A DNA stretch of 64,000 nt from Lingula anatina. Its lineage: Eukaryota > Animalia > Brachiopoda. How positions within the stretch are numbered: position 1 is the first letter of the stretch; each line of letters opens with the position of its first letter. Below the pieces are notes generated by a model. That model was not told where the DNA came from, did not search any database, and saw nothing but the letters and a program-made list of their open reading frames with translations. The position numbers and the translations under genes are program-made. This document shows positions 1,510 through 50,864 of this stretch, piece after piece. Where the stretch lies: contig CM120642.1 of assembly GCA_051362555.1 (NCBI GenBank), positions 24,800,001 through 24,864,000 on the forward strand, in the 5' to 3' direction.

Positions 1510-2750
1510 CTAAGCCCAGTGTTTTTTGCGTATAGGCGAACTCTTTTAATGTATTGGAATAACTGATTAAAACAGCGTTTCTGTGGAAAACGAACACCAA
1601 CCTTGTGACCATTAGTATTGCTTCAATCGAAGCTTGTAATTGATGGAATCTCAAAATACACCGAAGCACTGTAGGCCTATTTAAATCTCACGTGATTAAG
1701 ATTTCACTGAAAAATAGATTTTTTTTTATAATTACAACTTATACTGGGCAGTCACTGTTAATATAATCAAATATCTTCGGTTTTAGCGGTGTTTGATTGA
1801 ATCTAGGCAGCGAAAAAAATCCGGATAATATTTCAATAGTCCTTGGAGATACCATGATCTCTTCTGATTTATATTAGTGTCGGCTGAAACTCCGAGGAGA
1901 ATCTTGGCGATGGAAAGGGGGCGATGGCCGAGGAGGAATCCAGGTCAACTTTACTATGCAACTGGGAGACTTTTGTCTACATTTCTAGCTGGACAGATGT
2001 ACAGAAATGTGCACAGAATAAGCAGGAGAAAATTTGAATATAAAGTGAAAAAATATGTGGCTTAAGTAGTAGAGGGTACATGTAGGTCAATTCGATGTAC
2101 TTTTTAAACAGGGGAAGGTTCAGTTTTTGCTCTACTGTGGTTAACATATTGGTATATAGGCCTACATTTTAAAATTTTGTTTTAATGGTGCAAAACCAAA
2201 ATGGTACACGTTACTTGTTTTTAATGTTGATCTTCTATGTGCTTTTTAAATTCAGTTTTCCATGACTGTGAATTAACATAACTGATATCTCAAATGGCAC
2301 GAGAGTTCGAATGTGGCATACTTCTCTTTTTTACTCTTGGGGTAAATGGCATGTATCTGCATGTGTACCAGTAAAGGTACATTATTGACTGTGTTATTCA
2401 CTATAGTAACATATTAAAAAAAAAAGAGTTAAGCCGACAAACCATCTAATATAATAACAGATGAAATAAAAATCAATCCCCTTCAAGACTTACTGCGACT
2501 ACCGGGCATATATAGTGCACATGTATATTGAGCAATTTTTGGCACAGGAAAAGAGATCCATAATCGTTTCTAAAGCATATTTTGCAAATTGGGTTATCCG
2601 GTATATAATGCAACCATGTACCTCAAAGAAAAGTCCCTGTGTGATTATCAATGCTCAACTAATAGATTAAGTGCAGTGCATGCTTCCAGCAATTGGTTGT
2701 TTATAAATCATTGTTTAACCGACAAACATAACCAGGAGTACGTTTCCCCT

Positions 2751-2782
<32 letters not shown>

Positions 2783-3702
2783 GCTCCGTCTTGCCACTTT
2801 TTCGATGACTGTCGAAGGTTTCACATAAAACGTTATATAATCGTCATACTGCATGCGAACCACATATATCTACATGTGGATATATTATATGATCAATGCT
2901 ATTTTACACCATTCGCACCTTTTTGCACGATTAAGTGCCAAACTGCCCGTCCTTATTGGAAGGAAATTGTTAATTTGAACCTAGAATTCCGAAACGGAAA
3001 ACAGTTAAATGGCCATTCAGAACTTAATGTGCCCTATAGTGCTGAGATGTCCAAAGATTCTCAGTGACAAGCTGAAAGAACTTGACGTCTTTTTCTTATT
3101 AATTTGAAACTCAATGTGAAATGTGCGCGTCATAACGAAATGTTGTTTCCCTTCCAATAACATAAACTACCGCCAATATCTTCGCTGGTATGTATCTGAC
3201 ATACGCTTTATGTCCCCATCGATTTTTCCCTCCGCACCAAAGCACCTACAAGTGGTAAAATATTATTCAATATTACTTGCTCAACACCCCAATGACTGCC
3301 ATTTCCTGTAATCTCTAGGAAAATTCAATAAGCAGAGACTAGTCAATAATTATTTCCTTTATAGGCAGGTTGTATCTATGTTCTGTTGTCTAATAACAAT
3401 GGGATCGATGGTGTAACTGATTACAAAATTACCATCAAAAGTATGCTGCTTTTACTTATTATAAATTGATTTGAGACTTCAGTCACTTCAGAGCACGAAT
3501 ATCTATGCGTTTTTTTCCCTCAGTTTTGTGTGCATTTGTGAATAATTTTTTTACCCTCCCCCCAACTTCCACAGACCACAAACTATCCTTTTTTAAAACT
3601 GATTTCATTCATTTTTTAAAACTGATTTCATTCACAGTATACATTCAAACTGAATTTCACATTGAGTTGGGAGAAACGTTTCTCGCGCACAACCAAGCTT
3701 AA

Positions 3703-4317
3703 AGCAATAATAACTCTTCCTTTGAGATTCAAAAATCCGCATGAAATACATTGTAAAAAACGCATGGAAATATATTCTATTGTATTTTACCACTAAAACG
3801 GCCGTTATTGTAGGAAAACTAAAATCTGTGCTTGTCAATAGGGCTTACGATGCCTTTTTTCCGGTCGACAAGTGCATTCGTTGCTAATGACGTAATGGTG
3901 TCACGCGGATTCTCGCGTTCATTCGAGACCAAAATAACATTAGTGCAGACGCAGACGTAAGTTGCGAGTTTTTGTACAGTGCGTCGGATAACGAAAAGCC
4001 CAGAATGGCACACATTGCGGATATAAATGCATTTTTAACAAAAAGACGAATATATCTCATGAATCTTATATAGTGTTGTTGTTGTCTGCTTTTCCCGCGG
4101 TTTTAAGTAGGTCACCAGTGACTTTGCAATGTCAGAGAGAGCTCCGTCAGTTAAAATCTCTTAAGAGATTTTAACAAAAAACCGTACGTTTAGGAAAAAA
4201 ACCCTGGATTAACTTTGAATGCAGGAATGGGGTCGTTGGCCATTGGTAAGTACGGGAAAATTGCCGTTTTTTCCAGGAAAATCCAATTTTTGGCCAAAAC
4301 GAAGAGTTATTATGACT
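3703..4317. mobile_element. Non-autonomous TIR DNA transposon (MITE) with TTAA target duplication, Kolobok-like; copy 1 (615 bp)
   Basis: TTAA|AGCAATAATAACTCTTC ... GAAGAGTTATTATGACT|TTAA gives 17-bp TIRs with 2 mismatches, and TTAA at 3699-3702 and 4318-4321. AG...CT termini with a TTAA TSD fit Kolobok better than piggyBac (CC...GG). A near-identical copy lies at 5572-6098. Confidence 0.85.
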
Positions 4318-4667
4318 TTAAATGTTATACACGGTTATTTTCACTCTTACGATACTGATTTCTTTCATTTTTTTTGCACACAAAATGACAATTATCTTTA
4401 CATATCCCTATGAAGGAACTTTCTTCTCCCAACAAACCAGTGCCTTGGCACGTGTTTAGCCCCGTGCTTGCCTCCCAGGAGAACCGGATCGATCAGATGT
4501 TCTCTGTGAAATGATCTGCATTCTACCATATTAGAAGGGCACACGGCCATGTACGTACGTATGTTAATGCTGTTATATACAGTCGTTGACTATGTACTCA
4601 GTGCCATCGACCTACAAGGGCATATGCATGTAGTTAGAGTGCGCTTATCGTTTCCGTGTGCCCAATT

Positions 4668-4677
4668 TGTGTGTGTA

Positions 4678-4716
<39 letters not shown>

Positions 4717-4738
4717 AAAGGAGAGAAAGAGAGAGAGA
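4668..4738. repeat. Compound (GT)n(GA)n microsatellite
   Basis: Directly visible dinucleotide runs. Confidence 0.95.
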
Positions 4739-5571
4739 CTTATGTCGTTTCTAGAGTTGAATACTTTTGAATTACCATAATAATTAACTGAGATCTTCAA
4801 AACCATGGCAATGTTACGAAAATTAATCACGATAGAATCTCAAATTCATCGATCAAGCATAAAGTCTGGACCTAAAAGAACCTCCAGTGCGAATTGCTCG
4901 TTGGCAAAAAGTCGGAAGAAAAAGCTGCGCCACAGGTGAAATATATATCCGTCGACGTCTCCGAACAATATCATACTGCAACAAACAATCCAAATCTATA
5001 CTACAGAACCTCAAGTTAATGATCCAATTTTATACCTTGTATAACGTAGCTGATTGTGTGGTTTTGCGGCCAAAATCCTATGCTTTAGATAAGATTAGGA
5101 ACGTCACGGCGTTGGGATGTTTTGAAAACAAGTCCATTTGTGGTTTAATTTTGGTATAACTTAATTACGTCTTGATGTTACGTAAATTTTAAAACTAACA
5201 ACAGTCACCAGGGCTATATTTTTCAATGATTTATATATTACAACAACGTACATCCCTACAGCTACTCCTCTTCTCTATGATATTCAAAATTGCTGGATTC
5301 ATGTGAGTTTTAAGGTTAGATCTCGACAGATTCACAGTCAAAACCCTTCACCAACCGTCCAAGTCGGATAATATAAGACCAAAAACTTTGCAACCCTAGT
5401 CGAAGGCGGTTCTCTCAGAGAAAACGACATGTAGATAAACAGACCCTACTGGCCTGCAGACATGTCAATTTTTCAGTGATTATGAAGAGTTATCTGGTCA
5501 CGAGTTTTAGTCGTGAATTCGTCTTCCTTAGAAATGATCCGAGTGCATTTCACAATGATTGAAGTACTTAA

Positions 5572-6098
5572 AGCAATAATAACTCTTCCTTTGAGATTCA
5601 AAAATCCGCATGAAATACATTGTAAAAAACGCATGGAAATATATTCTATTGTATTTTACCACTAAAACGGCCGTTATTGTAGGAAAACTAAAATCTGTGC
5701 TTGTCAATAGGGCTTACGATGCCTTTTTTCCGGTCGACAAGTGCATTCGTTTTTGTACAGTGCGTCGGATAACGAAAAGCCCAGAATGGCACACATTGCG
5801 GATATAAATGCATTTTTAACAAAAAGACGAATATATCTCATGAATCTTATATAGTGTTGTTGTTGTCTGCTTTTCCCGCGGTTTTAAGTAGGTCACCAGT
5901 GACTTTGCAATGTCAGAGAGAGCTCCGTCAGTTAAAATCTCTTAAGAGATTTTAACAAAAAACCGTACGTTTAGGAAAAAAAACCTGGATTAACTTTGAA
6001 TGCAGGAATGGGGTCGTTGGCCATTGGTAAGTACGGGAAAATTGCCGTTTTTTCCAGGAAAATCCAATTTTTGGCCAAAACGAAGAGTTATTATGACT
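5572..6098. mobile_element. Kolobok-like TTAA MITE, copy 2 (527 bp, 88-bp internal deletion)
   Basis: Same TIRs, with TTAA at 5568-5571 and 6099-6102. By eye it matches copy 1 except for loss of copy-1 bases 3883-3970 and one substitution. The flanks are unrelated, so these are two independent insertions. Confidence 0.85.
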
Positions 6099-7027
6099 TT
6101 AAGATGAAAATCCATTTATTAAGCCCAAAGACAACAGAATACGTTCTCGTCTGGCCGCCATTAGCGTTATGCTATATAATGATTTGCAAAGTGTGTCGCT
6201 TTTTCAACAAACCGATCTTTAGGCCAAGCGCACGTTCTTTTTTTTTTTTTCACTGAAGACTTTTTCGTGTAGCAGTTTAGCAGACTAAATGGGCCCTAAT
6301 AGGCAAAAGCACGTTTGAGACGTCAACTCTCTAGACTTGACTTTAACTTTTACCTACCTCTAAGTTTAGCGCTGGGCAATGTCTACAGTTCAGTCTTCGC
6401 CCACAATGCCGTTCTAAGTGACCCGTTACGTCTGAGCTCATAGATGTAGATAACCTAGGCGAAGACAGTGGTAACAGGAGCGTGGGCACACTTGGACTGG
6501 CATTAAGTGCGCTCTTGACATGTGTCACTCGCTATCAAATGCAATTTATTCCTGAATTTTGAGAAAAATTAAAAGTTTTGCATTTATCTTTATCGCACCA
6601 GGTTTCAGTCTATGTATAATCTCTAAAATGTTCTGTATATTCTTTATCTGGATTTTTTATTTGTTCCTTCATAGAAAGATTTCGCAAAACAGCATACACA
6701 ACGGTACCAAATTTACATAAAATGATATTTAAAAATTTATAAATAAATAAAAATCACTCACCAATTTCTTTTCCTCGACAGGTCCAAACAATTCATTAAC
6801 GTGGCCAGTCTCGTGGAAGTTTTCCCTCCAAGCATCGGTGCGCTTTCTGTGTCTTATCTAAACACTGTGATGTCTAAGTACTAGTTGACTCTTATCATGT
6901 CAGGAGGACAACTCATTAGATAAGACACATCCTCTTGATCATGTGTATAATACATGATGTATTTTCATAACTTGAGCAGGCTGTACTGTTCTTACTAGTT
7001 TTAATAAACGTGGTGTTAGATCTTATT

Positions 7028-7119
7028 CAGGCCCGTAGCCGGGGGGGGGGGGGGGGGGGGTTTCGAAAGAACCCCCCTTTTTGCTGGAAAAAGGTCCACT
7101 CTGGGTAAAATTTGGCCTG
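7028..7119. mobile_element. Internally deleted copy of a CAGGC-ended MITE with 5-bp TSD
   Basis: TTATT|CAGGCCCGTAGCCGGG...GAAAGAACCCCCC...AAAAGGTCCACTCTGGGTAAAATTTGGCCTG|TTATT. Shares internal sequence with 50696-50864. Confidence 0.75.
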
Positions 7120-7819
7120 TTATTTCAGGCGGCAGGCACGTATATTAATATTCTAGCCCCCTCCCGTGTTTTATTTTCCATACAACTGATTCCATCACCC
7201 TGTGTTTCAGTGGTTATTGAACTATCGTCTCTATTATTATCATGTCTCTGTCGCTTCAAGTATATCCTGTGACCCATAAAACTCAGGGTGAATTCCCATC
7301 TACCCGCTTACTGTACGGAGAACCAAAATCTAGTGTGCGGAAATCGTTCCCTGTGATAGCATCTCTGCCCCACCTCCTTTAGCTCCCTCGTGAAAATCTC
7401 CTCCCCCTCCTCGTTTATACCCCTTTTCTTCTCTAAATATCGAAAATAAAAATACCCCCGCCTAAGCGTGCCAAATAACTGTGAAGTGGAACCCCAGTCA
7501 TCCCATAAGCTCATAAACGTTGATTTAGTAGTAGAAAATAAATTTCTGGTGGATTGTTTGAGAAAAACAATTTACTTGTGAAAAAAAAACATCAAACTGC
7601 AGAGGATACTATAAGTCACCACAAATACCCGCTGTATATACTATAAACCTGGACAGAAATAATGTAAAACTTTTGGAAAAAAATATCACCAATAACAAAG
7701 ACATCAGCCCCATGTTTATCTTTCCATTTTGCTCCCGGTTGTGATTATCGTTGCCCATTGTAGTAGATGAGACAAAAAGCGCATTACATTGAAGCGGCTC
7801 CCAGTCTAAGCACGTGATG

Positions 7820-7924
7820 CAGTCGAGTTGAAAAAGGCAACAGGAGAAAAACCTCTCTGAAAATGACATTAGAAGAACTAAACGACAATGTGCTGTTGAC
7901 GATTTTTATTTCCTTTAATCCTGG
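7820..7924 (+). other. Putative first (non-coding) exon and promoter-proximal region of the plus-strand transcription unit; start approximate
   Basis: Donor-like TGG|GTCAGT after 7924. It sits where CpG-containing sequence gives way to CpG-poor sequence, and two more exon-like segments follow. Confidence 0.35.
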
Positions 7925-8083
7925 GTCAGTATATTGTTGTCAATAAAGTGAAGTTGAAACATTAACCTAACTTTCATTCTACATTTTGTACACTTGCCGC
8001 TTCAAAAATGAAATTTACAAAACTTTGTCAGTAGTGAAAAATGAATACTCAGTTGATTACTGATGTTTTCCCCCTTTTCTTAG

Positions 8084-8184
8084 GCGTGGCCTCAAACATC
8101 ATGTACATATTGATTTATTTTAGAAAAGGGTTTTCCGACGATTCAGTGTAAAATGTCATTTTAATTTATTTTAAATTAATAAAG
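8084..8184 (+). other. Putative 5' UTR exon
   Basis: Acceptor ttttcccccttttcttag| before 8084 and consensus donor AAG|GTGAGT after 8184. Confidence 0.5.
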
Positions 8185-8598
8185 GTGAGTATAATTGTGT
8201 TATAATTAAATGTAGTCAGAGATGTTGTGAATTAGTTTAGACAAGCAGCACTCTTTAGCATATTTTCTTTTATTAAGGTCTGAATTCTTATCAGTCACAG
8301 ACTTTTCCCAAGATGGTTATGAAATTGCCTGTTTTCTTTTTAATCTTGAAGAGTAACTGTTACAGAAATGAAGGGAAATCAAATGGGATAATGTGCACTA
8401 TTAAACACAAGTAAAATATATATTCTGTATTATTATAATATGGATTTTTTCAATGAACATGTAGTAAATAAGAATAAAAATTGAAAGTTTACAATTTTAT
8501 CAAACTTGTTTATTTATTTTAGAAAAACATTTTGTTTGATATAATTATTTTGAGATACAGTGACAAAAATGACACAATAGTCATTGTTTGTTTTGCAG

Positions 8599-8716
8599 AT
8601 TGGTAGTTGGTGATGAGAGAGATAGAAATCGGTTGATTACTGGGCCAGACCTTACAGCTGTTATTAAGATAGCTTTGCTTTTCCTTTGCCTTTCAGCACT
8701 GTAAAGACTTAGACAG
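8599..8716 (+). other. Putative 5' UTR exon
   Basis: Acceptor ttgtttgttttgcag| before 8599 and donor CAG|GTAAGG after 8716. Confidence 0.55.
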
Positions 8717-11079
8717 GTAAGGACAATTTTTTCCAAGTAGTATCTGATAAATGTCACACCACTTATGTCTGTTTCTATTATTTGTAGGATAATATAAATT
8801 AATAGCAGCTGTGCTTATTTTTGTCATATCTTATCAATTTCTTCTTTTTTTCACTTTTTCAACCGTTTGTCAAACTTGTAACAAAAATATAAGAATTAAT
8901 AACAAATAAAATGCAATTTTCTAATTAAAGTATGAAACAGCATGATAAACCAAAGTTTTTGTTCAACTGAGAAACTAATAACTTCACTGTCTTTGTAATT
9001 GTATACAGAGGCAAAAAGAAAAAAATGGTCAAAACTAGCTGATTGGGATGACATTTTGTCTATAAATTGCACTAATTGCATATATGAATCAATTAGTTAT
9101 CAAACCATTCTATTTCCATACTTGTACTAATCCATGTACATGATGGGGAGCTTTTTTTTCTTTTTTGTAAAACTGTCCTGTATTTACAGCCAAATTAATC
9201 CACCCTGAGTGCCACAGACCACTGGAAACTCTTGGAATACAATGTATCAGCTCACCTGTAGTATTTCCAGTAGCTGACAGAAGTACTGAGTATAGAGGGT
9301 GCATGTTAAGAGTAAAGGTAAGGCACTGTAAGCTCAGAGTGAAATTGGCTGACATTTCTGTGGAATGAAATTCAACCTCAACCAAAGCAGTAAATTGCCA
9401 TGAAATACCAACTGGAAATTCTATCTCTAGATTGTTTGTAGAGAAACTTTGGCAACGGAATATTTGGGTAAATAACATCAGCAGACAGGTGCAGCTTGGC
9501 CTAGCCTATAGAGAGAAGAGTATTTGCTGCTGTAGGTGGCTGTTTCTATCAGAGTTATGTTTATAAATAGTACTGTAGATTGTCTTGATAGTTAGGCCTG
9601 AGAGCATGTCACATGTATCGGACCATCTGTACGTCTGGGTATTTATCTGTATATATACACGTACATGTAGCCAAATGATGCAGTGTCAGCATAAATGAAA
9701 TTCAATAGTGCAGAATCATATGTGACACCTTGAAACAAGCTGTGCACATTATGCTGTTGGACATGGATGATAATAACAGCAGAAGAAGGGAGTGTTACAG
9801 TAACAAGCTGTTGAGAGACATTATCAGGAATATACAGTGAAAGACAAAGAAATTAATGTCATGAGAAAGTGAGCTGAGTTGTTAAAGATTGGGAAAGATA
9901 TTCCGTCGAAGGAAAATGGGACGAAAAGTTTTTTGTTTCCTGTAGAAAATCACTGTTTTCATTACGATTACATCTTACTTACCTGAGCTGCTGACGTAAT
10001 ACAGGTAAAAAATAGATGCAAGGAATACCATATCTATTTTTTCCTGGGAGAGGCAGGATTTGAGTTAGGAAAACTGTTTTGTATTGAAAACGTATGCCTC
10101 AGTGACGAGTAATGGCATAGTAAACATTAATATCCCAGAAGAGGAAGGTTGCAGGTTATTTCAGCAACAGATGTAGAAAATACCAAGGACTATAAATTTT
10201 GTAGAAATTGCCAGAAAACAGAATTCCTCAAGATATACATGGTGGGTGCAACAGCAGATAATGGAGGAATGTGTAGGATTTTCATTCTTGGAGAAAAACT
10301 AACGTACATGACATACCATATACTATATGGAACTCTGCTGTGAAAAAATTTCCTCCACATAGAGAAGATAGAAGTACAGGAATAGTGGGAGAAAATGTTC
10401 ATTTGGAGTGACATTGTAGAAGTCACTGTGCCTGAAGAAATTTGTCTCTGATTCAAGCTGCCATTAATTACTTCACTGATATCCTGTCTTGTTTAATTGG
10501 AACTCGTTCACCTGGGACCTTGCTCCCATATGGACATCATCTCCATGGGCCATCTGCTGGTCACTGCTTAATGGCCTCTTGATGACGAAGCCAATTAATT
10601 AAGACAATTTAGAAGAAGTTGTGACAAAAAAGGAGGCAGTTTAGTGCTAGTAAGCTCTGGGGTGTACCTCTGTTCATTGATGCAGTCAGGTAGAAAGATG
10701 ACAGTTAATTGTTGAAAAGTGAAAGATTAAAGGATACAAATTTGACTGTTGTAACCCATAGTGAACCAGGAGAGAAGAACTGACATATTCTACTCAAATT
10801 GTCTGCAATACAATAAGAGTTTACCAACAGAATATTTTGAAGTAATGTGACAAAATTTGTCTCCTTGTTGGATATAAGAAAACACATTGCATTGCTGGTG
10901 TGCACATGAGCATTTACCTACCTGCACATGTACTAGTAGGTATGTATACCAAGTACAATATATGTACCACAGGATTCTTTTGACATACAAAACTCATTTG
11001 GGAATTCAGGCATTGTGAGGTGCTCTGAGATATTTTAAATTGTAGGAAGAGGATTTGACATTCAGTTACAATTGACAAC

Positions 11080-13668
11080 ATGGCAATGTGGGGTGTTGGT
11101 CAACTTGGCTGGGTTTGGCGGAGAATCACATCCTGTTTCCGTGGCAACTTGACAAATTCTCCAGATGATGATGATGATGATGATGACGATCAGAGGAAAT
11201 GTTGTAAAAGTGACAAGGAAAGCCTTAGTGACACGGACTCTCATGATGGGTTCTTTGATACAGATTGGAAAGATGTCAGCGAATCATCAAAATTAGAAAC
11301 AGTTGAAAACAGGTATGTTGTAACACCAAAAGCAAACATGGACACGCTAGATGAAAGTGATGATAATGAAAAGGAAGACTTGTATGAACCTGTTGCCAGA
11401 GGGACAAGTACAGGAGAAATTAAAGAAGTTAAAATTGCGGCAAATAAGCTTGATGCTGAATCAAGAACAGAGAATTTCACCGTCACACCAGCAGAATGTA
11501 ACGGTAGAGAAAGGAAAAGTAGGATTTATGTAGAAAGTGATGGAAGCGATGATGACTATGAGCCGGTTACTGTCCAGGGTACTCTTATGATGCCAAAAAA
11601 AATCTGCACCAGTGAAAGTGACAATCACAGTAGTGCTAACCCAATGACACATGCTTCTCCAGATTTTGAAAATTACGACAAACCAGGTGATAACCAATTG
11701 AAATGTGAACAACATGACTCAGACGATAATTTGACATCTGCTCAGAGTAACAAAACTGAGGAACCAACATCTTCCCAAGATTCAACTGGTAAAGATGACC
11801 ATGCTCCTCATTATGTGAAGATAATGAGTATGTCACAGTCAGATCTCAACAAACACAATTACCTTGATGGAATTGACAAGAAAACTGACAACGAAATTAA
11901 CAAGGAAATTGACATTGAAAACAAAAGTGAAATAGACGATGAAAATAACCAGGATAACATTTTTGAAGATATTCTTTTCAAAACTAACCCCACAAGTGAA
12001 ATGAAAACAGCTGATTTTTATCAGTTGGAATTTGAACAAAATCCAAATGAAGAAAGTACATCTGTGGATTATGATTATGATGATACTATGCTTTTGAGGG
12101 ACTCTGATGCTGAAAATGACAATACTGTCAGTAATGATAATGAAGCTCACTGTGCAAATGTTTCTAATAGTAACAATAACGATAGTAATAACTACATCGA
12201 TGTTATTGCTATTAATGCCTGCATTCAGGAAAAAAGTTGTGACACAGGTTTGGAAGACGATGATGTTGATTTTGACACTAGTTATGAATACGATGATGTT
12301 GTCAATGCCACTGCAGATGCTGATACTGTACTTTCACAGGACTTTAGTGTCAATGATAGTTCTGTAGCTGATAACACTGCTAAGAATAACCAACAGCATG
12401 CTGGTTGTGATGATGCTACTGCTGATATCAAATGCGATGACAATAAAGACAATAGTCTGGACAACATTCTGGACAAAACTGCATGTAATGCTGATGTTAA
12501 CATTGACAGTAATGACGAATATGATGATGTTGTCAATGTAAGTGACCAAACAAGCCTTGCTACTGATGAAAATCAAACAGACACTGAAAAGAAAGTTCTC
12601 CCAAATCAAACATCATCAACAGCTAATGCAGGAGATAAAATTGATAATGATCCGGAGGCATGTAACAAAAATGATACAGCATCCGCATCCAAGGAATTAT
12701 CCCATGAATATGATGAAACTGATGATTCTTGTAGTAATGTGGTTGCTAGAATTCAAGGAGGGAGCAGGAGAATATCAAACCACCTCTATGAGGATGTCAC
12801 CGAGACTGACAATGATGAACACCATGCAAAATTAAGTTCAGATGGTCAAGATTTATTAAGACATGATTACACTGATAAATCAGAAGTGGACTGTGGTGGT
12901 TCAAAAAATCACGCTACCATTGGCAATGAAAGCAACATAGAGCTTGTGCTCTATGAATATGAGGATACAGTTGATGGTGACAATGACATTGTTGATGGGA
13001 GCAGAGAAAATTTGGAGCGTGTTACAGGAGATCAAAGACCCATTTCATTCCATTCGTATGAAGACGCAGAGAGTTACTATTCTGAGCAGAGTTATAGAGA
13101 AAAATGGCAGTCCAATCATGATTATGAGGACACTTCTGATGATAATGGTGGTGATGTTGAGCATATTGATGCCAGTCAGAACAATGAAAATGTTGAAACT
13201 GTTGGCATGACAACTAATCACCAGTATGAAGAAGCTGAGGATGATAAGAGCGAAGGTGTTCAGTCTCGTGAACGCATCTTGTCAAGACATCATAGTTACG
13301 AGGACATTGATCTTGATTATGATTATAGTAACAGTTGTAGTCACAGTTCTGATTATGCCAGTAACACTAGTGTTTTAAATGCTGCAGTGGTAGTTGAAAA
13401 TGGCACATATTTCGATTCTCACGTCACAGATGACAAACCAGCTGTTCCAGATTTCCCATATGATTACGAAGGGTATCTTGAACCCAAATCTTTTACTGAA
13501 CATATCTATGAAAATTTACCTACAGTAGCCTTTGTTGAGCAAGAAAGTGAAAGTGAAAGTAATGTTGATAATGGTCAGGAGGGTGTATTAGATGGGAAGG
13601 GTGTGGCATGGGAAGATGGTGGAGAGAAGATTACTGACACATTTTGGAGTAATACCTCTTTTGTTTGA
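11080..13668 (+). CDS. 862-aa highly acidic, probably disordered protein with about 20 tyrosine motifs (YEPV, YDDV, HxYED/E, IYENL); either a single-coding-exon gene or a giant alternative N-terminal exon of the BCAR3 homolog
   Basis: A 2.6-kb uninterrupted ORF in AT-rich DNA, with strong Kozak context (gacaacATGG), an upstream in-frame stop and an acceptor-like ttgtag| at 11045. D/E/N/S-rich, with recurring Tyr motifs. No folded domain recognised. Confidence 0.85.
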   Translation: MAMWGVGQLGWVWRRITSCFRGNLTNSPDDDDDDDDDQRKCCKSDKESLSDTDSHDGFFDTDWKDVSESSKLETVENRYVVTPKANMDTLDESDDNEKEDLYEPVARGTSTGEIKEVKIAANKLDAESRTENFTVTPAECNGRERKSRIYVESDGSDDDYEPVTVQGTLMMPKKICTSESDNHSSANPMTHASPDFENYDKPGDNQLKCEQHDSDDNLTSAQSNKTEEPTSSQDSTGKDDHAPHYVKIMSMSQSDLNKHNYLDGIDKKTDNEINKEIDIENKSEIDDENNQDNIFEDILFKTNPTSEMKTADFYQLEFEQNPNEESTSVDYDYDDTMLLRDSDAENDNTVSNDNEAHCANVSNSNNNDSNNYIDVIAINACIQEKSCDTGLEDDDVDFDTSYEYDDVVNATADADTVLSQDFSVNDSSVADNTAKNNQQHAGCDDATADIKCDDNKDNSLDNILDKTACNADVNIDSNDEYDDVVNVSDQTSLATDENQTDTEKKVLPNQTSSTANAGDKIDNDPEACNKNDTASASKELSHEYDETDDSCSNVVARIQGGSRRISNHLYEDVTETDNDEHHAKLSSDGQDLLRHDYTDKSEVDCGGSKNHATIGNESNIELVLYEYEDTVDGDNDIVDGSRENLERVTGDQRPISFHSYEDAESYYSEQSYREKWQSNHDYEDTSDDNGGDVEHIDASQNNENVETVGMTTNHQYEEAEDDKSEGVQSRERILSRHHSYEDIDLDYDYSNSCSHSSDYASNTSVLNAAVVVENGTYFDSHVTDDKPAVPDFPYDYEGYLEPKSFTEHIYENLPTVAFVEQESESESNVDNGQEGVLDGKGVAWEDGGEKITDTFWSNTSFV

Positions 13669-13869
13669 TTTATATTTCTCTGTTTCCAACTTGTTTATTC
13701 ATTTACTTTTTGTGAAATCTACTCTTTTTTTCAATCACCTTGATTAAACCTCATTTCCTTTTTGATTGACCACTGTTGCTTTTACATTAAGTGCTATTAC
13801 TGAGCTAGGACCCAAAATATCTTCTATCCTAGTGCTGAGCTCCTCATTATATATTTTAAAACTTATAAT

Positions 13870-13967
13870 TAGATAAATATGTATATCTTCAACTTTATTG
13901 AACTAATCTAGTTGATGATGGACACCTGGAATGATACATATAAAGAGCACTATTAGATATCTAGCTA
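13870..13967 (-). repeat. 3' LTR (98 bp)
   Basis: Identical to 19223-19320. Reads TAGCTA...TATCTA on the element strand, with AATAAA at 13899-13894. Confidence 0.95.
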
Positions 13968-13979
13968 TCTCCTTCCCCC
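13968..13979 (-). promoter_or_regulatory. Polypurine tract (plus-strand primer)
   Basis: GGGGGAAGGAGA on the element strand immediately before the 3' LTR. Confidence 0.9.
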
Positions 13980-14239: not shown

Positions 14240-17200
14240 TCAAGAAGAGTCCCTGGTTGAAGCCGGTTTCCGAGTTTCCTGTATGTCAGTCTCTTTAGAA
14301 TGACGGCTTGGTCTGGATGGAGTAAGCATTTCTGTAGTTCCTGGCTTGTTATGAGGTAGCAAACGGGCTAATGCACGTGGCAAACCACCACTGGTGCGCT
14401 GTTTGGTGACAGTAGGGGCATCCTGGCCACTGGGATCTGGGGCACTCAAATCTGGCTCTTCAGATAATTGCGATGGAGTAGAAGCATCCTGGTATGGCAC
14501 AGTAGGTTCATCTGGATTTTTTGGCTGTGTGACCTGTACAGGGTTGTCATGGGTTTGCTTCTTTCCCAGATAAAGGTCACCAGGTTCGTGATGGACCAAC
14601 TTAGTGGGTTGCTCAGGCACTGTGTTCTCCTTGAGGGCCATCTCAATCATGGGGAAGTAGTCACTGCTAACAAATGGAGTGAACTTCCTAAGATGCTGCC
14701 GGTTGCGGATAGTCACCCTGCCTGAACCATCCACTTTGATGACATACTGGTGGTGCTGTCTTACTTCAATTACTATTCCAGTTCGCTCCCACTTCCGGGG
14801 ATAATTTCCTACAAGGTTCTGTAAGTACACATGATCTCCAACCCTCAATGGTGGTAAGATCCTAGTATGCTCACTCCAGCGTTCATGCTCTCTGGAATGA
14901 CGTTTTGCAAGTGCTCTTTCTCGATGTGACATCAGCTCTGCCCATGTTTCGTGTGGGGAATATCTTCCCATGGGTATTGGAATGGCATCGCGAATAGGCC
15001 GTCCAAATATAATTAATGCTGGGGAGGCCTTTGTTTGTGGGTCAATAGAATTTCTGTACATAAGCATGGCTTTCTGAAACTTGTCAACATCAAGGGATCC
15101 TGTTGGGGCTATATTGTCTGCAAGCATTCGCTTCACAGTTTTGACAGCTATCTCAGCTCTACAGTTAGCATGAGGGTTGGCAACTGACGAAATTCTGTGT
15201 TTAACACCCCAGGTTTTAAGAAATTCTTGTGTTTTCCCCGCAGTAAATTGTGGTCCACCATCTGAGGTTAACTCCTCTGGTATTCCAAATGTGACGAAAG
15301 TTTCACGCAATCTTCTGATTAGACCCTCTGCGCCTCCTTCTGCTTTAAAAGCCATTGGCCAATTGGAATATCGGTCGACAATGACAACATAATCTTTACT
15401 GTTGTATGTGAAGTAGTCACAGCAGATCATTTGGAAAGGGTAGTCTGGTTGTTTAATATCAGATGGTGGCTGCATCGGGTTTGATTTAGCCATGCGATGA
15501 CAATGTGCACATTGGTCCCTAACTCTAGCAATGTCAACTGAGATATTGGGCCAAAAAACAGAGTCTGCTGCTCGGGACTGCATAGCACTTATACCCTGGT
15601 GAGCTGCATGGAGGGCATTGAGGATTGGTGTGCGTAAGGCCCTTGGGATAACAATTCGTTGACCCATGAGTATCACTCCATCAACAACACACAGGCTTGC
15701 TGTGTGACGGTGGTATGGACGTATCTCTATGGGGAGTTCTCTGCAATCTTCTGGAAAGCCTTTCTCAAGGTATTGCATTAGTGTAAGTAATGTTGTATCT
15801 GAAGAGGTGGCATCTCGGACCACATCCCAGGTGACAATAATGTTAGCAGCATCCAGTGAGGCAGACGCAGCAGCAATGGTGCAAGCATCATCAGCAAAGT
15901 CTGTGTCTGCTGTGTCTTGGTATAAACTAGCCAATGTGACCTGTGGAGGCACAGTCATGTAGGATATGGTGTCACTGTCAGATGGTTCATTTGGTAGATG
16001 CATTCTACTTGGCCGACCAGCAGGGTGTCTGGATGCTGCATCTGGGCCGGGATTCTTCTTCCCTGGGACATGCACTATGGTGAATCTGTATGCTAGTGTC
16101 TTTTCTTTGAGATTGAGTAGTCGCCTGTTGTGAATTTCGGTGAGTGACCTATCATTTAGCACCTGAACCAGTGGTTTGTGGTCTGTGGCAACAATCAAAT
16201 CTTTACAGCCCAATACATAGTAGCGAGTCTGATGCAATGCATAGGCCACGGCCAGGGCTTCACCCTCTATGGGTGCATATCTGCTTTCTGCTGGGTGGGT
16301 AAACCTGCTTCCTACCAAGCATAACTTCCAGCCATTGTGACAACATGCTGGAGTTTTGGAGGTGCATTGGCAATACTTTTGCATCAGGAAGAATCCAACT
16401 CCATCAACAGACCAATCAGTGGACAGACATGTTTGGCGGTTTGGATCAAACAAACGCACTCCTTCTTTCATCTCTTCTATAATGACTTCTTTGGATTGGT
16501 GGAACAGGTTGTCCAACTCATCTGTCCATTCAAATTTTGTGGACGGCTTTAGGAGCTTCCTGAATGGCTTCATCTGACGTGCCATTGAGAATGCATAAGC
16601 GCCTTGATTAATGAGCCCAAACCAGGCTCGGGCACCACTGATATCTGTAGGTGTTGGGAATTTCCTTATGGCATCTATAAATTTGTCACTTGGTTGTATG
16701 TTCGTAGGTGTGATTGCAAGACCAGCAAATTCGACTGCATCTTGGGCGAACTGAAATTTCTTGGGATTCAAGGTGATACCGTTACGTGCACACAGGTCTA
16801 ACCACTTACATGCCTGAAAGAATGCCTCTTCAACTGAGTTTGCCCACATGCATGTATCATCTACACACTTGACTTTATTAGGGAAGTCTGTGATTATGGC
16901 ATCAAATCTCTGGTTGTAGGCATCTCCACTGGCTAAAAACCCCTGAGGTGCTACCTTGTATCTGTAACGGCCCCATGGTGTGATGAATGTTGTGATATGC
17001 CGGTCCTCCTCCCTAATAGGCACAGAGTGGTACCCATTCCAGGCATCCGTCACGGTTTTTTTTACACCCTGTGGGATGCGGTTTGCTAAGTGAAAGGGGG
17101 TAGGCACATGGTGTGTTTGGCGGACAGAGTGGCGGTTCAGTTGCTGTAAGTCTACTGTTCGCCTAGGAGTGCCATCGGCTTTTCCCGTTACTACCATGCG

Positions 17201-19135
17201 GGAACACCATGTTGTTGGGGTATTTGGGCTGACTCGTTCAAGGACCCCTATTCGGACATCCCTTTCAAGATCAGCAAAGACCCTCTCTTGCCAGTGAATT
17301 GGAACAAGTGCTGGCTTATGGACTGCGACCGGTTTGGCATCTGGATCCACATGAAGTTGGAGCGGCTCACACTTCATCAGGGGTAATGGCTGGTGTTCAC
17401 ACGTATTAAATGTTGTTGCTCCATAATAGTCGAGGAGCCAATCTTTAAGCACTTCAACATTTTCTTCCAAAGCCTTTAAGCCAGGGGGAAGAGATGTGGG
17501 TAATGGTGGTGGCTCCTCTCTGCGCCTTGGACATGTGCATGGAACTTCGTCAGTGGGGCCAATTGAAGCCGTATGTGTTATATGTGTGGCACTCGGAAAA
17601 TCTGGCTTAATTATCCCCAAGTCTGTCAGTGCCTCTCTGCAGAGGAAGGCTTTCTCAATGGATTCAGACACGTAACACATCAAGCGAGACGTTCTGATGT
17701 GATTGTTTTCATCTTTGACTGAGACACTGACAGCAATGCCACCCATAACACCCAGATTCTCTCTGATGGCACCTCGCATCACAAGTTTAACAGGCAAGAG
17801 GTCTTCTTTCCTTATGCCTAGAGCCATAGCCGACTTCAGTGGTATTATGCTGCTCTGACACCCTGTATCCGCAATCATGGACATGTTGACTGGTTTAAGT
17901 GTTGACGTGTCTTGCATCGGATACCCAAAAGCAGCATGATCTGCAGGTAGAGGGGTCATTCTCACTAAAACCATTGGGTGCGGTTTTGATGGGCGAGCTA
18001 TCCACTGGCCGTCAAATATGTGGTGATCAAGAAATGCAGTCTTGTTGGGTTTATGTCGCCTGGGCGGATTGTTTTCGGAAGCCGTACACAGCTGATCAAA
18101 TACATAATTGGTGTCAGCGTGGTCCGTACCCTTAGTTTGACCTGTCTGAGTGCGTGGTTTGGGCGGGTTTCTATATCCTCTCCCTTGCTGGCATAACCTT
18201 GAAGACTTATCCCGGTGGCCCCATTCACCGCAGGTGTTACATTTGCTGCAAAGGTCTGTATAATGTCCTTTGACACCACATTTGGCACACATGAAACCCC
18301 ATGCCTCACACTTCCTGGCTCTTGCTCTTCTATCGTTTCTTGGTCCATGGGCAAGTCCACCACATGCCCAGCATTTCGGTTTCCCATCAGTTTGAACAAG
18401 TGGTGATTTTTGAACATTGCTGGCAGCATTAGCATTGTCTCCGACTGCACTCTTGGTCACTTTTCCCTGTTCCTTCTGAGCGATAAAGGATACAGTTTCC
18501 TCTAGCGTCCTGTCTGTTTTAGGGTCACCCAATAAATCTGACATAATTTCTGGGTCAGCGATGCCTCTGATGAGGTTGTCTTTTATGATTTCATCACTGT
18601 AGTCAAACATATGGGTGCAGCCTTCTTCTTTACATGTGGCTGTATACCGACACAATGCTGCTTGGCCTCTCAGGCTTGCCAAAAATGTTCTAATACTGGT
18701 TCCTGGAGTTTGAGTCATTTTACTCAGTCGTATGCGATGAACCAGGGTACTCTCATCTTTGACAGCTAGTCTTCTTATGGCAGCTAGGAGGTCTGCCTCC
18801 GCCATATTTGCAACATTGTCTCTAAGATCTCGCATAATGTCTGTGCGTAAGTCTTGATCACAACAGTAAAAGAGGGCGGTTGCTACCATGTTTTCAGCGA
18901 TGTTCATACCAGCCTTGTACATGTTCCACTGCCTGGTGAATGCCGACCACTGATCTGGATCAGACCCTGTTGAAATTTGTGGTGGATCCAGCTTGAGTTT
19001 CTGGGGCGCCGGCTGAGTCGGATGGGCAGTCTGGCCATGCATTTGGAGAGCTGCAGTTAAGGCTCCTGCGAAGGCAGCGTCAAGGTCCTGTGACTGCCAG
19101 TCACAACCCACCACAGGACATTGCAGTTGGGGCAT
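14240..19135 (-). CDS. Gag-Pol polyprotein, 1631 aa (gag with Zn knuckles, aspartic protease, reverse transcriptase, RNase H, integrase)
   Basis: CCHC knuckle CAKCGVKGHYTDLC. Protease MIADTGCQSSII. RT motifs TDAWNGYHSV, TPWGRYRYKVAPQG and CVDD. RNase H motifs TDWS, RYAPIEGE, TDHKPL and DAASR. Integrase HAAHQG...CAHC plus D,D-35-E (CDYF, SDGGPQF, RAEIAVK). No stops or frameshifts. Confidence 0.97.
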   Translation of the reverse strand: MPQLQCPVVGCDWQSQDLDAAFAGALTAALQMHGQTAHPTQPAPQKLKLDPPQISTGSDPDQWSAFTRQWNMYKAGMNIAENMVATALFYCCDQDLRTDIMRDLRDNVANMAEADLLAAIRRLAVKDESTLVHRIRLSKMTQTPGTSIRTFLASLRGQAALCRYTATCKEEGCTHMFDYSDEIIKDNLIRGIADPEIMSDLLGDPKTDRTLEETVSFIAQKEQGKVTKSAVGDNANAASNVQKSPLVQTDGKPKCWACGGLAHGPRNDRRARARKCEAWGFMCAKCGVKGHYTDLCSKCNTCGEWGHRDKSSRLCQQGRGYRNPPKPRTQTGQTKGTDHADTNYVFDQLCTASENNPPRRHKPNKTAFLDHHIFDGQWIARPSKPHPMVLVRMTPLPADHAAFGYPMQDTSTLKPVNMSMIADTGCQSSIIPLKSAMALGIRKEDLLPVKLVMRGAIRENLGVMGGIAVSVSVKDENNHIRTSRLMCYVSESIEKAFLCREALTDLGIIKPDFPSATHITHTASIGPTDEVPCTCPRRREEPPPLPTSLPPGLKALEENVEVLKDWLLDYYGATTFNTCEHQPLPLMKCEPLQLHVDPDAKPVAVHKPALVPIHWQERVFADLERDVRIGVLERVSPNTPTTWCSRMVVTGKADGTPRRTVDLQQLNRHSVRQTHHVPTPFHLANRIPQGVKKTVTDAWNGYHSVPIREEDRHITTFITPWGRYRYKVAPQGFLASGDAYNQRFDAIITDFPNKVKCVDDTCMWANSVEEAFFQACKWLDLCARNGITLNPKKFQFAQDAVEFAGLAITPTNIQPSDKFIDAIRKFPTPTDISGARAWFGLINQGAYAFSMARQMKPFRKLLKPSTKFEWTDELDNLFHQSKEVIIEEMKEGVRLFDPNRQTCLSTDWSVDGVGFFLMQKYCQCTSKTPACCHNGWKLCLVGSRFTHPAESRYAPIEGEALAVAYALHQTRYYVLGCKDLIVATDHKPLVQVLNDRSLTEIHNRRLLNLKEKTLAYRFTIVHVPGKKNPGPDAASRHPAGRPSRMHLPNEPSDSDTISYMTVPPQVTLASLYQDTADTDFADDACTIAAASASLDAANIIVTWDVVRDATSSDTTLLTLMQYLEKGFPEDCRELPIEIRPYHRHTASLCVVDGVILMGQRIVIPRALRTPILNALHAAHQGISAMQSRAADSVFWPNISVDIARVRDQCAHCHRMAKSNPMQPPSDIKQPDYPFQMICCDYFTYNSKDYVVIVDRYSNWPMAFKAEGGAEGLIRRLRETFVTFGIPEELTSDGGPQFTAGKTQEFLKTWGVKHRISSVANPHANCRAEIAVKTVKRMLADNIAPTGSLDVDKFQKAMLMYRNSIDPQTKASPALIIFGRPIRDAIPIPMGRYSPHETWAELMSHRERALAKRHSREHERWSEHTRILPPLRVGDHVYLQNLVGNYPRKWERTGIVIEVRQHHQYVIKVDGSGRVTIRNRQHLRKFTPFVSSDYFPMIEMALKENTVPEQPTKLVHHEPGDLYLGKKQTHDNPVQVTQPKNPDEPTVPYQDASTPSQLSEEPDLSAPDPSGQDAPTVTKQRTSGGLPRALARLLPHNKPGTTEMLTPSRPSRHSKETDIQETRKPASTRDSS

Positions 19136-19211: not shown

Positions 19212-19222
19212 GGTGTCCGTCA
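19212..19222 (-). promoter_or_regulatory. Primer binding site position; non-tRNA type (TGACGGACACC)
   Basis: Directly abuts the 5' LTR, lacks the TGG start expected for a tRNA CCA end, and is 10/11 complementary to LTR bases 19269-19279. Confidence 0.7.
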
Positions 19223-19320
19223 TAGATAAATATGTATATCTTCAACTTTATTGAACTAATCTAGTTGATGATGGACACCTGGAATGATACATATAAAGAG
19301 CACTATTAGATATCTAGCTA
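19223..19320 (-). repeat. 5' LTR (98 bp)
   Basis: Identical to 13870-13967. Contains an Inr-like TCATTC at LTR nt 34-39 and AATAAA at nt 69-74 on the element strand. Confidence 0.95.
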
Positions 19321-20802
19321 ATAATTAATTAATTCAATTTTTTATATGTTGTTTTTATTAATTGATCAATTTGGCATTATTTGATCGATTTATAGCATAA
19401 ATAATATATGTAAATCAAATATATAAACAAACTATATAATTGTACAATGGTACCCAAATATTTACATTAATTCTTTTCATTAATAATGCGGTAACAAGTA
19501 AGTTAACTTTGCCGTTTGCCGTTATATATTATATCACAGGCTTAGATATATTAAGTGCTAAGATCATTTTATAAGCCTGAATAAAACCTGATCTGCTTTT
19601 ATAGTTGTTACGTTATCTGTTTTATATTTATTTTGGATGAATATTCACGTCTTTGTTATATATTGAAGAAAGGTTTTATTTTCCCCAAGTATTTAATAAA
19701 TAAAACACGAAGAGTCATCATATCACTAATGAGCCATGCATGGCAATAAATCAACTAAATGATTATTCCAGCTTGCTTTCCTCTAACCGTGCCTGATTCA
19801 TAGTCAGTTGATACATGCATTAATTATATCCCTTGATGCACAAGCAACCTTCCGGGTTAGTCAAGTTTTTGAGTAATTGAATCATCCAATTTTAGGCACT
19901 AAATTATTTGGATGTCTTCTGTTCTCCAAAAAGCAGAGTTAATCCAGTTACAAAATTGTGTTAGTTGAGATTTCTTCGACAAATGGTTTTCTGTGTTAGC
20001 ATTTTCGTGTGTTAAGTTTTAACCTATATGATTGCTGAAAGCTGAATTTGAGTACAATTCTTTAAATATTTTTGCTACAACAAAAAAGAAAAATGAAATT
20101 GATGATCTGATTACAGCAGTGATAATGGAATTAACTGAGGAAGTGGCAGAATGTGTTTAAAATACAATGGAAATTATACATATACATATACATGTATCTC
20201 CAGCTGCCTCAGTAATTATCATATATGATAACTTTGTGAACAACTTGTGAAATCTGGTTGAAATCTAATTGCCTGTATCATATTTGATTTGACAGCAGTG
20301 ATAAAACATGAAGTTTATGGCCAGGTGCCCCTCCCTTGTGTCTACAACAGCTGAGCTCAATCAGAGTTTTGATGTTAAACTAGTCAAATAGTTGTCTGTC
20401 TTTTACAATGTATTTAGTCAATATTTTGTGGTTTGATATTTCAGTTTTTTAAATCTTAACATTCCTTTGAGTTGGTGATATTAAATGCACTGACAAAATT
20501 TTCAAATATTCACCAAACTCCTTCCCTTTAAATTGATTAATTGAATACACAAAAAATTGATTAATTTAGTGCAATGTGTGTGTATTGAGGGGAAAAATAT
20601 GAATGATTTCAGTTGCTGTAGGAGCAGCAGTTCAAATCTGTGGAACTTTGTGCACTGTTGGAAATACTACCTCTGATCTTTGAGACCAGTTTTGAATCTT
20701 TTAAAACAATATTGAAACACAAAAAGTGAACAAAACAATATGAAATAAGGCTTGATGATGAATTAATTTTGAATGTATATTAAAAAAGTAACTTTAAAAG
20801 TT

Positions 20803-50695: not shown

Positions 50696-50864
50696 CAGGC
50701 TCGTAGCCAGGGGGGGTTCGGGGGGTTTGAAAGAACCACCCCTTTTGGTGGGGAAAAGGTCCACTCTGGGTAAAATTTGATGTAGGTTCATGAAGTTTTT
50801 ATGGAAAAAGGTCTACTTTTTCAGAAAAAGAACCCCCCTTTTGAAATTGCTGGCTACGGGCCTG
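50696..50864. mobile_element. 169-bp MITE with 15-bp TIRs and 5-bp TSD
   Basis: TCATT|CAGGCTCGTAGCCAG ... CTGGCTACGGGCCTG|TCATT (TIR match 14/15). Related to 7028-7119. Confidence 0.85.

Follow-up and report, generated by a model that had tools for sequence, protein, structure and literature searches.

In the fission yeast retrotransposon Tf1, the initial 11 bases of its RNA are described as pairing with its primer-binding site (PBS); cleavage by RNase H falls between bases 11 and 12 (PMC7175516). In the literature accessible to us, this is the only element for which self-primed reverse transcription has been proven experimentally, and the mechanism is treated as a mark of the group to which Tf1 belongs. 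The accessible reports of self-priming extend to Tf1/sushi, Tcn1, plant TAR copia elements and, tentatively, Skipper. The Tf1/sushi elements Tf1, Tf2, Tj1 and moss Tcn1 are presented as Ty3/Gypsy elements which lack a tRNA PBS and in which approximately 11 LTR bases are complementary to the PBS just after the 5' LTR (PMC7175516, PMC4600332, PMC10085805, PMC6317226). Self-priming outside Tf1/sushi is predicted by LTR-PBS complementarity for the plant Ty1/copia elements TAR/Houba/Osr-1 (PMC6317226), and repeated origins of self-priming are therefore already accepted. TAR/Houba/Osr-1 belong to another superfamily and another kingdom than the animal element described here, to which they are likened by LTR-PBS complementarity alone. 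Elements of the Mag lineage (A, B and C clades; SURL, Mag, Gulliver, Jule) offer a further comparison; for these the literature describes TG..CA ends (PMC3601003) together with sites for tRNA-Leu, -Ser or -Arg (PMC3286476).

The window, a stretch of 64,000 nucleotides of Lingula anatina DNA, contains on its minus strand a Ty3/Gypsy element of 5451 bp with the following parts.

19321..19325, minus strand: upstream copy of the target-site duplication ATTAT, directly outside the 5' LTR
19223..19320, minus strand: 5' LTR, 98 nt, TAG..CTA, whose boundaries follow from the target duplication and purine tract
14240..19135, minus strand: Gag-Pol, a single intact frame counted from its first Met and open from 19219
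13968..13979, minus strand: polypurine tract of 12 bases, abutting the 3' LTR
13870..13967, minus strand: 3' LTR, 98 nt, 100% identical to the 5' LTR
13865..13869, minus strand: downstream copy of ATTAT, directly outside the 3' LTR

Gag-Pol comprises a Gag with zinc-finger-like motifs, a protease, a reverse transcriptase (RT), an RNase H and an integrase, and Pfam recognized the RT, the RNase H and the zinc finger and core of the integrase in Gypsy order. The succession of protease, RT, RNase H and integrase between two LTRs, together with the target duplication and the purine tract, places the element in Ty3/Gypsy, and Ty3 Gag-Pol is the best match of its protein among solved structures. The acidic catalytic motifs of RNase H can be read in the translated frame. 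A look-up of Gag in the ESM Atlas led to one unnamed cluster. The Gag N-terminus (19040-19135, minus strand) carries a C-x4-C...H...H zinc-finger-like motif before the capsid region, which is common to most relatives. We conclude that this is a young, intact Ty3/Gypsy retrotransposon. It is genuine DNA: its sequence recurs in the DNA reads of nine runs from three studies, one of them possibly the source, with 88-97% of the sampled words. A circular contig of 5354 nt in run X1 was discounted as evidence of a DNA circle, as identical LTRs give such circles in assembly graphs.

Two features that the first-pass annotation did not contain set the element apart. The RT active-site motif is CVDD (residue 785 of the window protein P0001), and across the clade either CVDD or CIDD replaces the usual aromatic residue; C[VI]DD was present in 22 of the 22 tree rows in which the motif could be read. 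The motif was not found in the accessible papers or in the searched supplements, some files of which were unreadable, and the reference RTs in the accessible part of the PMC2871265 supplement contain neither CVDD nor CIDD. The LTR ends are TA..TA. Among the elements surveyed for this (window, L002, L003, L009-L011, L014, L015, L017, L018 and L020), LTRs start with TA and mostly end with TA, the exceptions being CA in L018 and GA in L015, and both the PBS and the purine tract are flush with the LTR. Target duplications of 5 bp were seen in the window and in L014. Recognition of the DNA ends by the integrase may differ in this clade from the usual CA rule.

Several other features lie in the window. 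An acidic open frame of 869 codons (11059-13668, plus strand), which has numerous Tyr-Glu/Asp motifs but matches nothing in Pfam, stops approximately 200 bp short of the 3' LTR. Its orientation is opposite to that of the element, and RNA reads downstream of this frame reach up to the LTR. A duplication of 185 + 300 bp, 100% identical, occupies 3698-4267 and 5567-6048 around a 1.3-kb spacer; the copy at 5567-6048 is without the 85 bp found between the two blocks in 3698-4267. A dispersed 70-bp repeat with a G run at its start is present at 7045-7114 and 50710-50779, with 81% identity.

The internal region opens with TGACGGACACC (19222-19212), without any spacer after the 5' LTR. The elements of the putative priming junction are the following.

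19279..19282, minus strand: YCA(G) motif after a T-rich tract, here LTR nt 39-42
19269..19279, minus strand: candidate self-primer, LTR nt 42-52, forming 10 of 11 possible pairs with the PBS
19242..19268, minus strand: hairpin P2, starting directly after the last base of the primer and containing AATAAA (19252-19247)
19224..19241, minus strand: hairpin P3, closing one base short of the LTR end
19212..19222, minus strand: PBS, abutting the LTR and starting with TGA, not TGG

The sole primer:PBS mismatch is an A-C, four bases from the 3' end of the primer, and the terminal A of the candidate primer pairs with PBS base 1. RNA folding predicts a three-way junction with hairpins at LTR nt 53-58/74-79 and 80-84/93-97 and with A98 unpaired. 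The first-pass annotation had proposed this junction of two hairpins with one unpaired base, as well as the pairing at 10 of 11 positions and a PBS that is not of the TGG type; for the window each of these claims held, and all of its coordinates agree with the sequence. The folding energy has a z of -4.85 for a trimmed 68-nt piece, a value inflated because the piece was chosen around the pairing, and of only -0.87 when the complete LTR is folded with 33 nt added. In a fairer control, the final 90 bases of the LTR were shuffled 2000 times with dinucleotides preserved, and no shuffle equalled the PBS pairing. Near-matches to the complement of the PBS within the 64-kb window were limited to the two LTR copies, and no tRNA genes were found in the window. 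No Rfam family, including the hammerhead, was detected at the junction; two matches in the element were at chance level (E 1.3 and 2.7), with bits far below the gathering score.

A protein search yielded 2204 relatives at E<=1e-20. For the best 120 of these, the names indicate Mya arenaria (82% identity) and Mytilus edulis; further Mytilus species and Lamellibrachia satsuma are represented among cluster members. The DNA of relatives was drawn from 29 loci, namely 11 metagenome loci and 18 contigs from bacterial genome bins. The latter (L012-L029) were assigned to GTDB bacterial bins and carry animal Gypsy elements, several of them beside satellite arrays; evidently they are animal host DNA contaminating these bins. 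The in-group with an LTR-PBS junction comprises 16 loci, 12 loci without one were excluded (L004, L005, L007, L008, L013, L021-L025, L027 and L028; L007 has a PBS-like sequence with no LTR ahead), and L029 represents a distant element. RT-RNase H identity to the window element is 53-86% among the positive loci that hold this region. L009-L011 contain Gag only and form one family group; these three, L015 with L026, and L002 with L003 are sister loci and not independent. L029 holds two SURL-like Gypsy elements on opposite strands (2569-3721, minus; 4320-9049, plus), of which the plus-strand element, with TG..CA LTRs and a TGG site, served as a tRNA-type control. Segment 7500-8000 of L015, from the PBS to the middle of Gag, looks inverted when compared with its sister in L026. 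No relatives emerged from three protein scans directed at viral contigs or from a search of genome contigs with Gag. A DNA-pattern scan of viral contigs gave approximately 2800 matches, which were taken as chance, and loci from L030 onward were not used. The RT tree was a quick version without named references, in which the L029 row is the other of its two elements, and all that it can show is therefore a scattering of the positive loci over the clade.

The comparative data provide the main support for self-priming. The first-pass annotation had named a loss of the LTR-PBS complementarity in relatives as a refutation of its proposal, and compensatory changes in this pairing and in both hairpins as a check. 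The pairing was kept in 15 of the 16 in-group loci, with 10-16 contiguous or near-contiguous pairs. The sole failure is L006, which looks decayed and whose Gag carries stops; the tRNA-type control from L029 lacks LTR-PBS pairing. In a sequence-only alignment of 13 rows (A4; L003 omitted as its junction crosses a contig end, L006 retained, L016 displaced from register by two columns), 88% of the cells were paired, compared with 35-47% when the partners were slid by 1-3 columns, a control that preserves relatedness. Both sides changed in 18 of 21 pairs, more than in any of 500 shuffles. Each window had been cut to surround the pairing and the rows share descent; the shuffle counts are therefore not probabilities, and the pair counts lean in favour. 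The changes were distributed over primer:PBS (10/11), P2 (4/5 counted pairs) and P3 (4/5). In all 13 rows the primer terminates in A, with U as the following base, and the terminal A-U pair with the PBS is likewise invariant (13/13). The 15 positive junction pieces that were folded had z values of -2.3 to -6.6, compared with +0.3 in the degraded L006 and likewise in the L029 element of tRNA type. When folded with 120 nt of downstream context, all 12 loci gave a primer helix with a mean pair probability of 0.87-0.99 and a predicted hairpin opening right after it. P3 closes exactly one base before the LTR end in eight of these 12. The exact junction claimed for the window is found in a majority of the folded loci and not in L014, L016, L019 and L020, in which the primer helix and first hairpin are kept and the second hairpin is shifted or lost. 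From the compensatory changes across distant relatives, we conclude that tRNA-independent self-priming is the best reading, and that the element very probably primes itself in some form.

The element has in common with Tf1/sushi its Ty3/Gypsy organization and the LTR bases complementary to an adjoining PBS that is not of the tRNA type. It differs in other respects. A chromodomain is present in Tf1, Tf2 and Tj1, whereas Pfam detected none in the protein of the window element, in agreement with the first-pass annotation, or in any of 20 proteins of the present set (E<=0.05). The 5' LTR of Tf1/sushi always ends in CA; here the end is CTA, and in the relatives TA, CA (L018) or GA (L015). The RT motif C[VI]DD also distinguishes the window clade. 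The Tf1 RNA forms a pretzel with two further duplexes, each joining a PBS-adjacent strand to LTR sequence downstream of the primer (PMC10085805), whereas the fold predicted for the window clade has two local hairpins within a loop of 37-74 nt, and only P3 touches the PBS side. In Tf1 self-priming is proven; in the window clade we infer it. The chromodomain and the CA end are absent from the window element, and its predicted fold is unlike the pretzel; together with the C[VI]DD motif, these differences argue against membership of Tf1/sushi. An origin of self-priming here would probably be independent of Tf1/sushi.

Affinity to the Mag lineage is suggested by compactness and short LTRs, the 5-bp target duplication, the lack of a chromodomain, and SURL-like words in the RT, seen in a comparison by eye with the accessible alignment in the PMC2871265 supplement. 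The TG..CA ends and tRNA-type PBS typical of Mag do not occur in the window element. Identity to the SURL-like L029 elements, the sole outside relatives drawn in by the scan, is 27-29%, too close to the Ty3 distance to decide a Mag placement. A Mag affinity would accordingly be drawn from likeness by eye and from weak identities.

The start of the RNA was considered from the conserved motif upstream of the primer. Our motif script sought CA, preferring CAG within eight positions, and placed YCA 12-17 nt upstream of the primer end in 13 loci, with CAG in 12 of them and CAC in one (L012); of the additional loci, the L015/L026 family has CAC and L017 has CAG, at 22 nt from the primer end. The first-pass annotation had pointed to an initiator-like TCATTC, which is indeed located at LTR nt 34-39, but the relatives keep YCA(G), at nt 39-42, instead. 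Pairing starts exactly at the A of YCA in L009, L011, L014, L016 and L020, as expected if that A is the first RNA base; in L026 the predicted helix extends two bases upstream of it. The RNA 5' end is therefore likely to be the A at LTR nt 41 (window 19280), as far as sequence can indicate, which would leave a U3 of approximately 40 nt. No TATA box was found in the U3 of the 13 loci, and with so short a U3 the promoter is unexplained. RNA reads over the element region numbered 27, 48 and 61 (six runs bearing the same species label, each sampled to 6-30%); 7, 2 and 12 reads covered the 5' end, with no site at which at least five molecules start. In X12, X15 and X13 most reads are in the direction of opposite-strand transcripts, if the libraries were stranded as usual, and X13 reads span the entire LTR into foreign flanks.

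The same motif would have another meaning if CAG were a splice acceptor and the self-primer lay on a transcript spliced from a host exon or spliced leader. In 12 of 13 loci, pyrimidine-rich sequence precedes a TTYCAG-like motif, the very short U3 without TATA box fits this reading, and the Gypsy element Cer1 is reported to have a trans-splice acceptor, although its full-length RNA skips it (PMC3315495). The substitution of CAC in two separate families (L012; L015/L026) retains the A and loses the G, and therefore fits an initiator, not an acceptor. In L014, L016 and L020 the motif reads TCAGTT, an initiator consensus. Branch-point-like YTRAY occurred in 7 of 13 loci against 4.0 expected, which is not significant, and base composition accounts for the absence of AG upstream, AG exclusion also being not significant. 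We consider the splicing variant rather unlikely.

With an RNA start within the LTR, self-priming could proceed as follows. By analogy with Tf1, the RNA would start near LTR nt 41, and its first dozen or so bases would anneal to the PBS as primer. In the predicted three-way junction, the primer:PBS helix continues into P2 with no gap, and P3 lies beside the PBS. The element's RT-RNase H would then cut between A52 and U53, again as in Tf1, leaving a 3'-OH on the PBS. Copying of the remaining 46 LTR bases would produce a strong-stop DNA of 46 nt, which would jump to the 3' repeat, and synthesis would go on by normal strand transfer. As neither the PBS nor the purine tract is separated from the LTR by a spacer, the ends of the cDNA would be flush with the TA..TA termini. 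Approximately 29 nt past the start, the poly(A) signal in P2 might speculatively be silenced by the fold at the 5' LTR. This full version, with an RNA start in the LTR and a primer freed by the element's own RNase H, is in our judgement somewhat favoured, and draws on the Tf1 analogy.

The Tf1 RNase H is described as needing an RNA of different build (PMC10085805), and the nuclease is therefore assigned by analogy only. Instead of being freed by RNase H acting in cis, the primer might be released by a host nuclease recognizing the junction, or originate from the particle's second RNA. The difference between the present fold and the Tf1 pretzel (PMC10085805) would suit this, as would the compensatory changes in P2 and P3, which show selection on shape and leave the enzyme unnamed; a ribozyme family was not matched, and the junction is nearly without unpaired bases. 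In the one studied case, RNase H is the enzyme used (PMC7175516), its motifs are intact in the window element, and the short loop favours folding in cis. A primer supplied in this way is, on balance, unlikely, and cleavage by the element's own RNase H is preferred.

A very unlikely reading is that the pairing serves to hide the 5' poly(A) signal, or serves dimerisation or packaging, while the true primer is a tRNA fragment or some other host RNA. Consistent with it, A[AU]UAAA is located in the loop region of 7 of the 12 folded loci. The PBS 11-mers are of 14 distinct sequences including that of the window, none starting with TGG, and each tracks its own LTR. In a cross test (excluding L015, L017 and L026, which were found later), PBS and LTR of the same element reached at least 10/11 pairs in 13 of 14 in-group rows, compared with 9 of 182 cells for a foreign LTR, eight of the nine being sister loci with near-identical PBS. 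Such variation of the PBS with its own LTR argues against a fixed host primer, which would hold the PBS constant. Moreover, the helix ends with the invariant A-U pair exactly at the LTR boundary, where synthesis must begin. The probability of chance complementarity in AT-rich sequence is close to nil: the weak fold of the whole LTR and the one foreign PBS-LTR pair that reaches 10/11 would permit it, but the pairing in 15 of 16 relatives, the 18 of 21 compensatory pairs and the failure of the tRNA-type control refute it unless the loci are mis-assembled.

Taken together, the comparative evidence for tRNA-independent priming is strong, and what it points to is a known mechanism in a new lineage with a new RNA architecture. 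Certain animal Gypsy families are reportedly called self-primed in Repbase notes. No full-text report of self-priming in a non-chromovirus animal Gypsy clade was found within reach of our search, beyond which lie most subscription journals and Repbase Reports; the literature covered also includes PMC10886601, PMC6238403, PMC13524379, PMC8220671, PMC5006619, PMC5341516 and the PMC8556966 supplements, and unread supplements could name the clade. We tentatively propose, as a possibility slightly less likely than not, that a widespread and undescribed animal Gypsy clade with C[VI]DD and TA-ended LTRs invented self-priming independently, and that its compact junction presents the cut site and hides the poly(A) signal. 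Annotation tools that need TG..CA ends or a tRNA site would probably tend to miss such a clade. If the proposal is true, the fold of approximately 70 nt, different from and much smaller than that of Tf1 and with natural compensatory variants, would be a minimal substrate on which to study how an RT cuts RNA into a primer for itself. Elements of this kind would not be subject to control through the supply of tRNA or through its fragments, and an abundant second lineage, in animals, would mean that self-priming has more than one origin among Gypsy elements.
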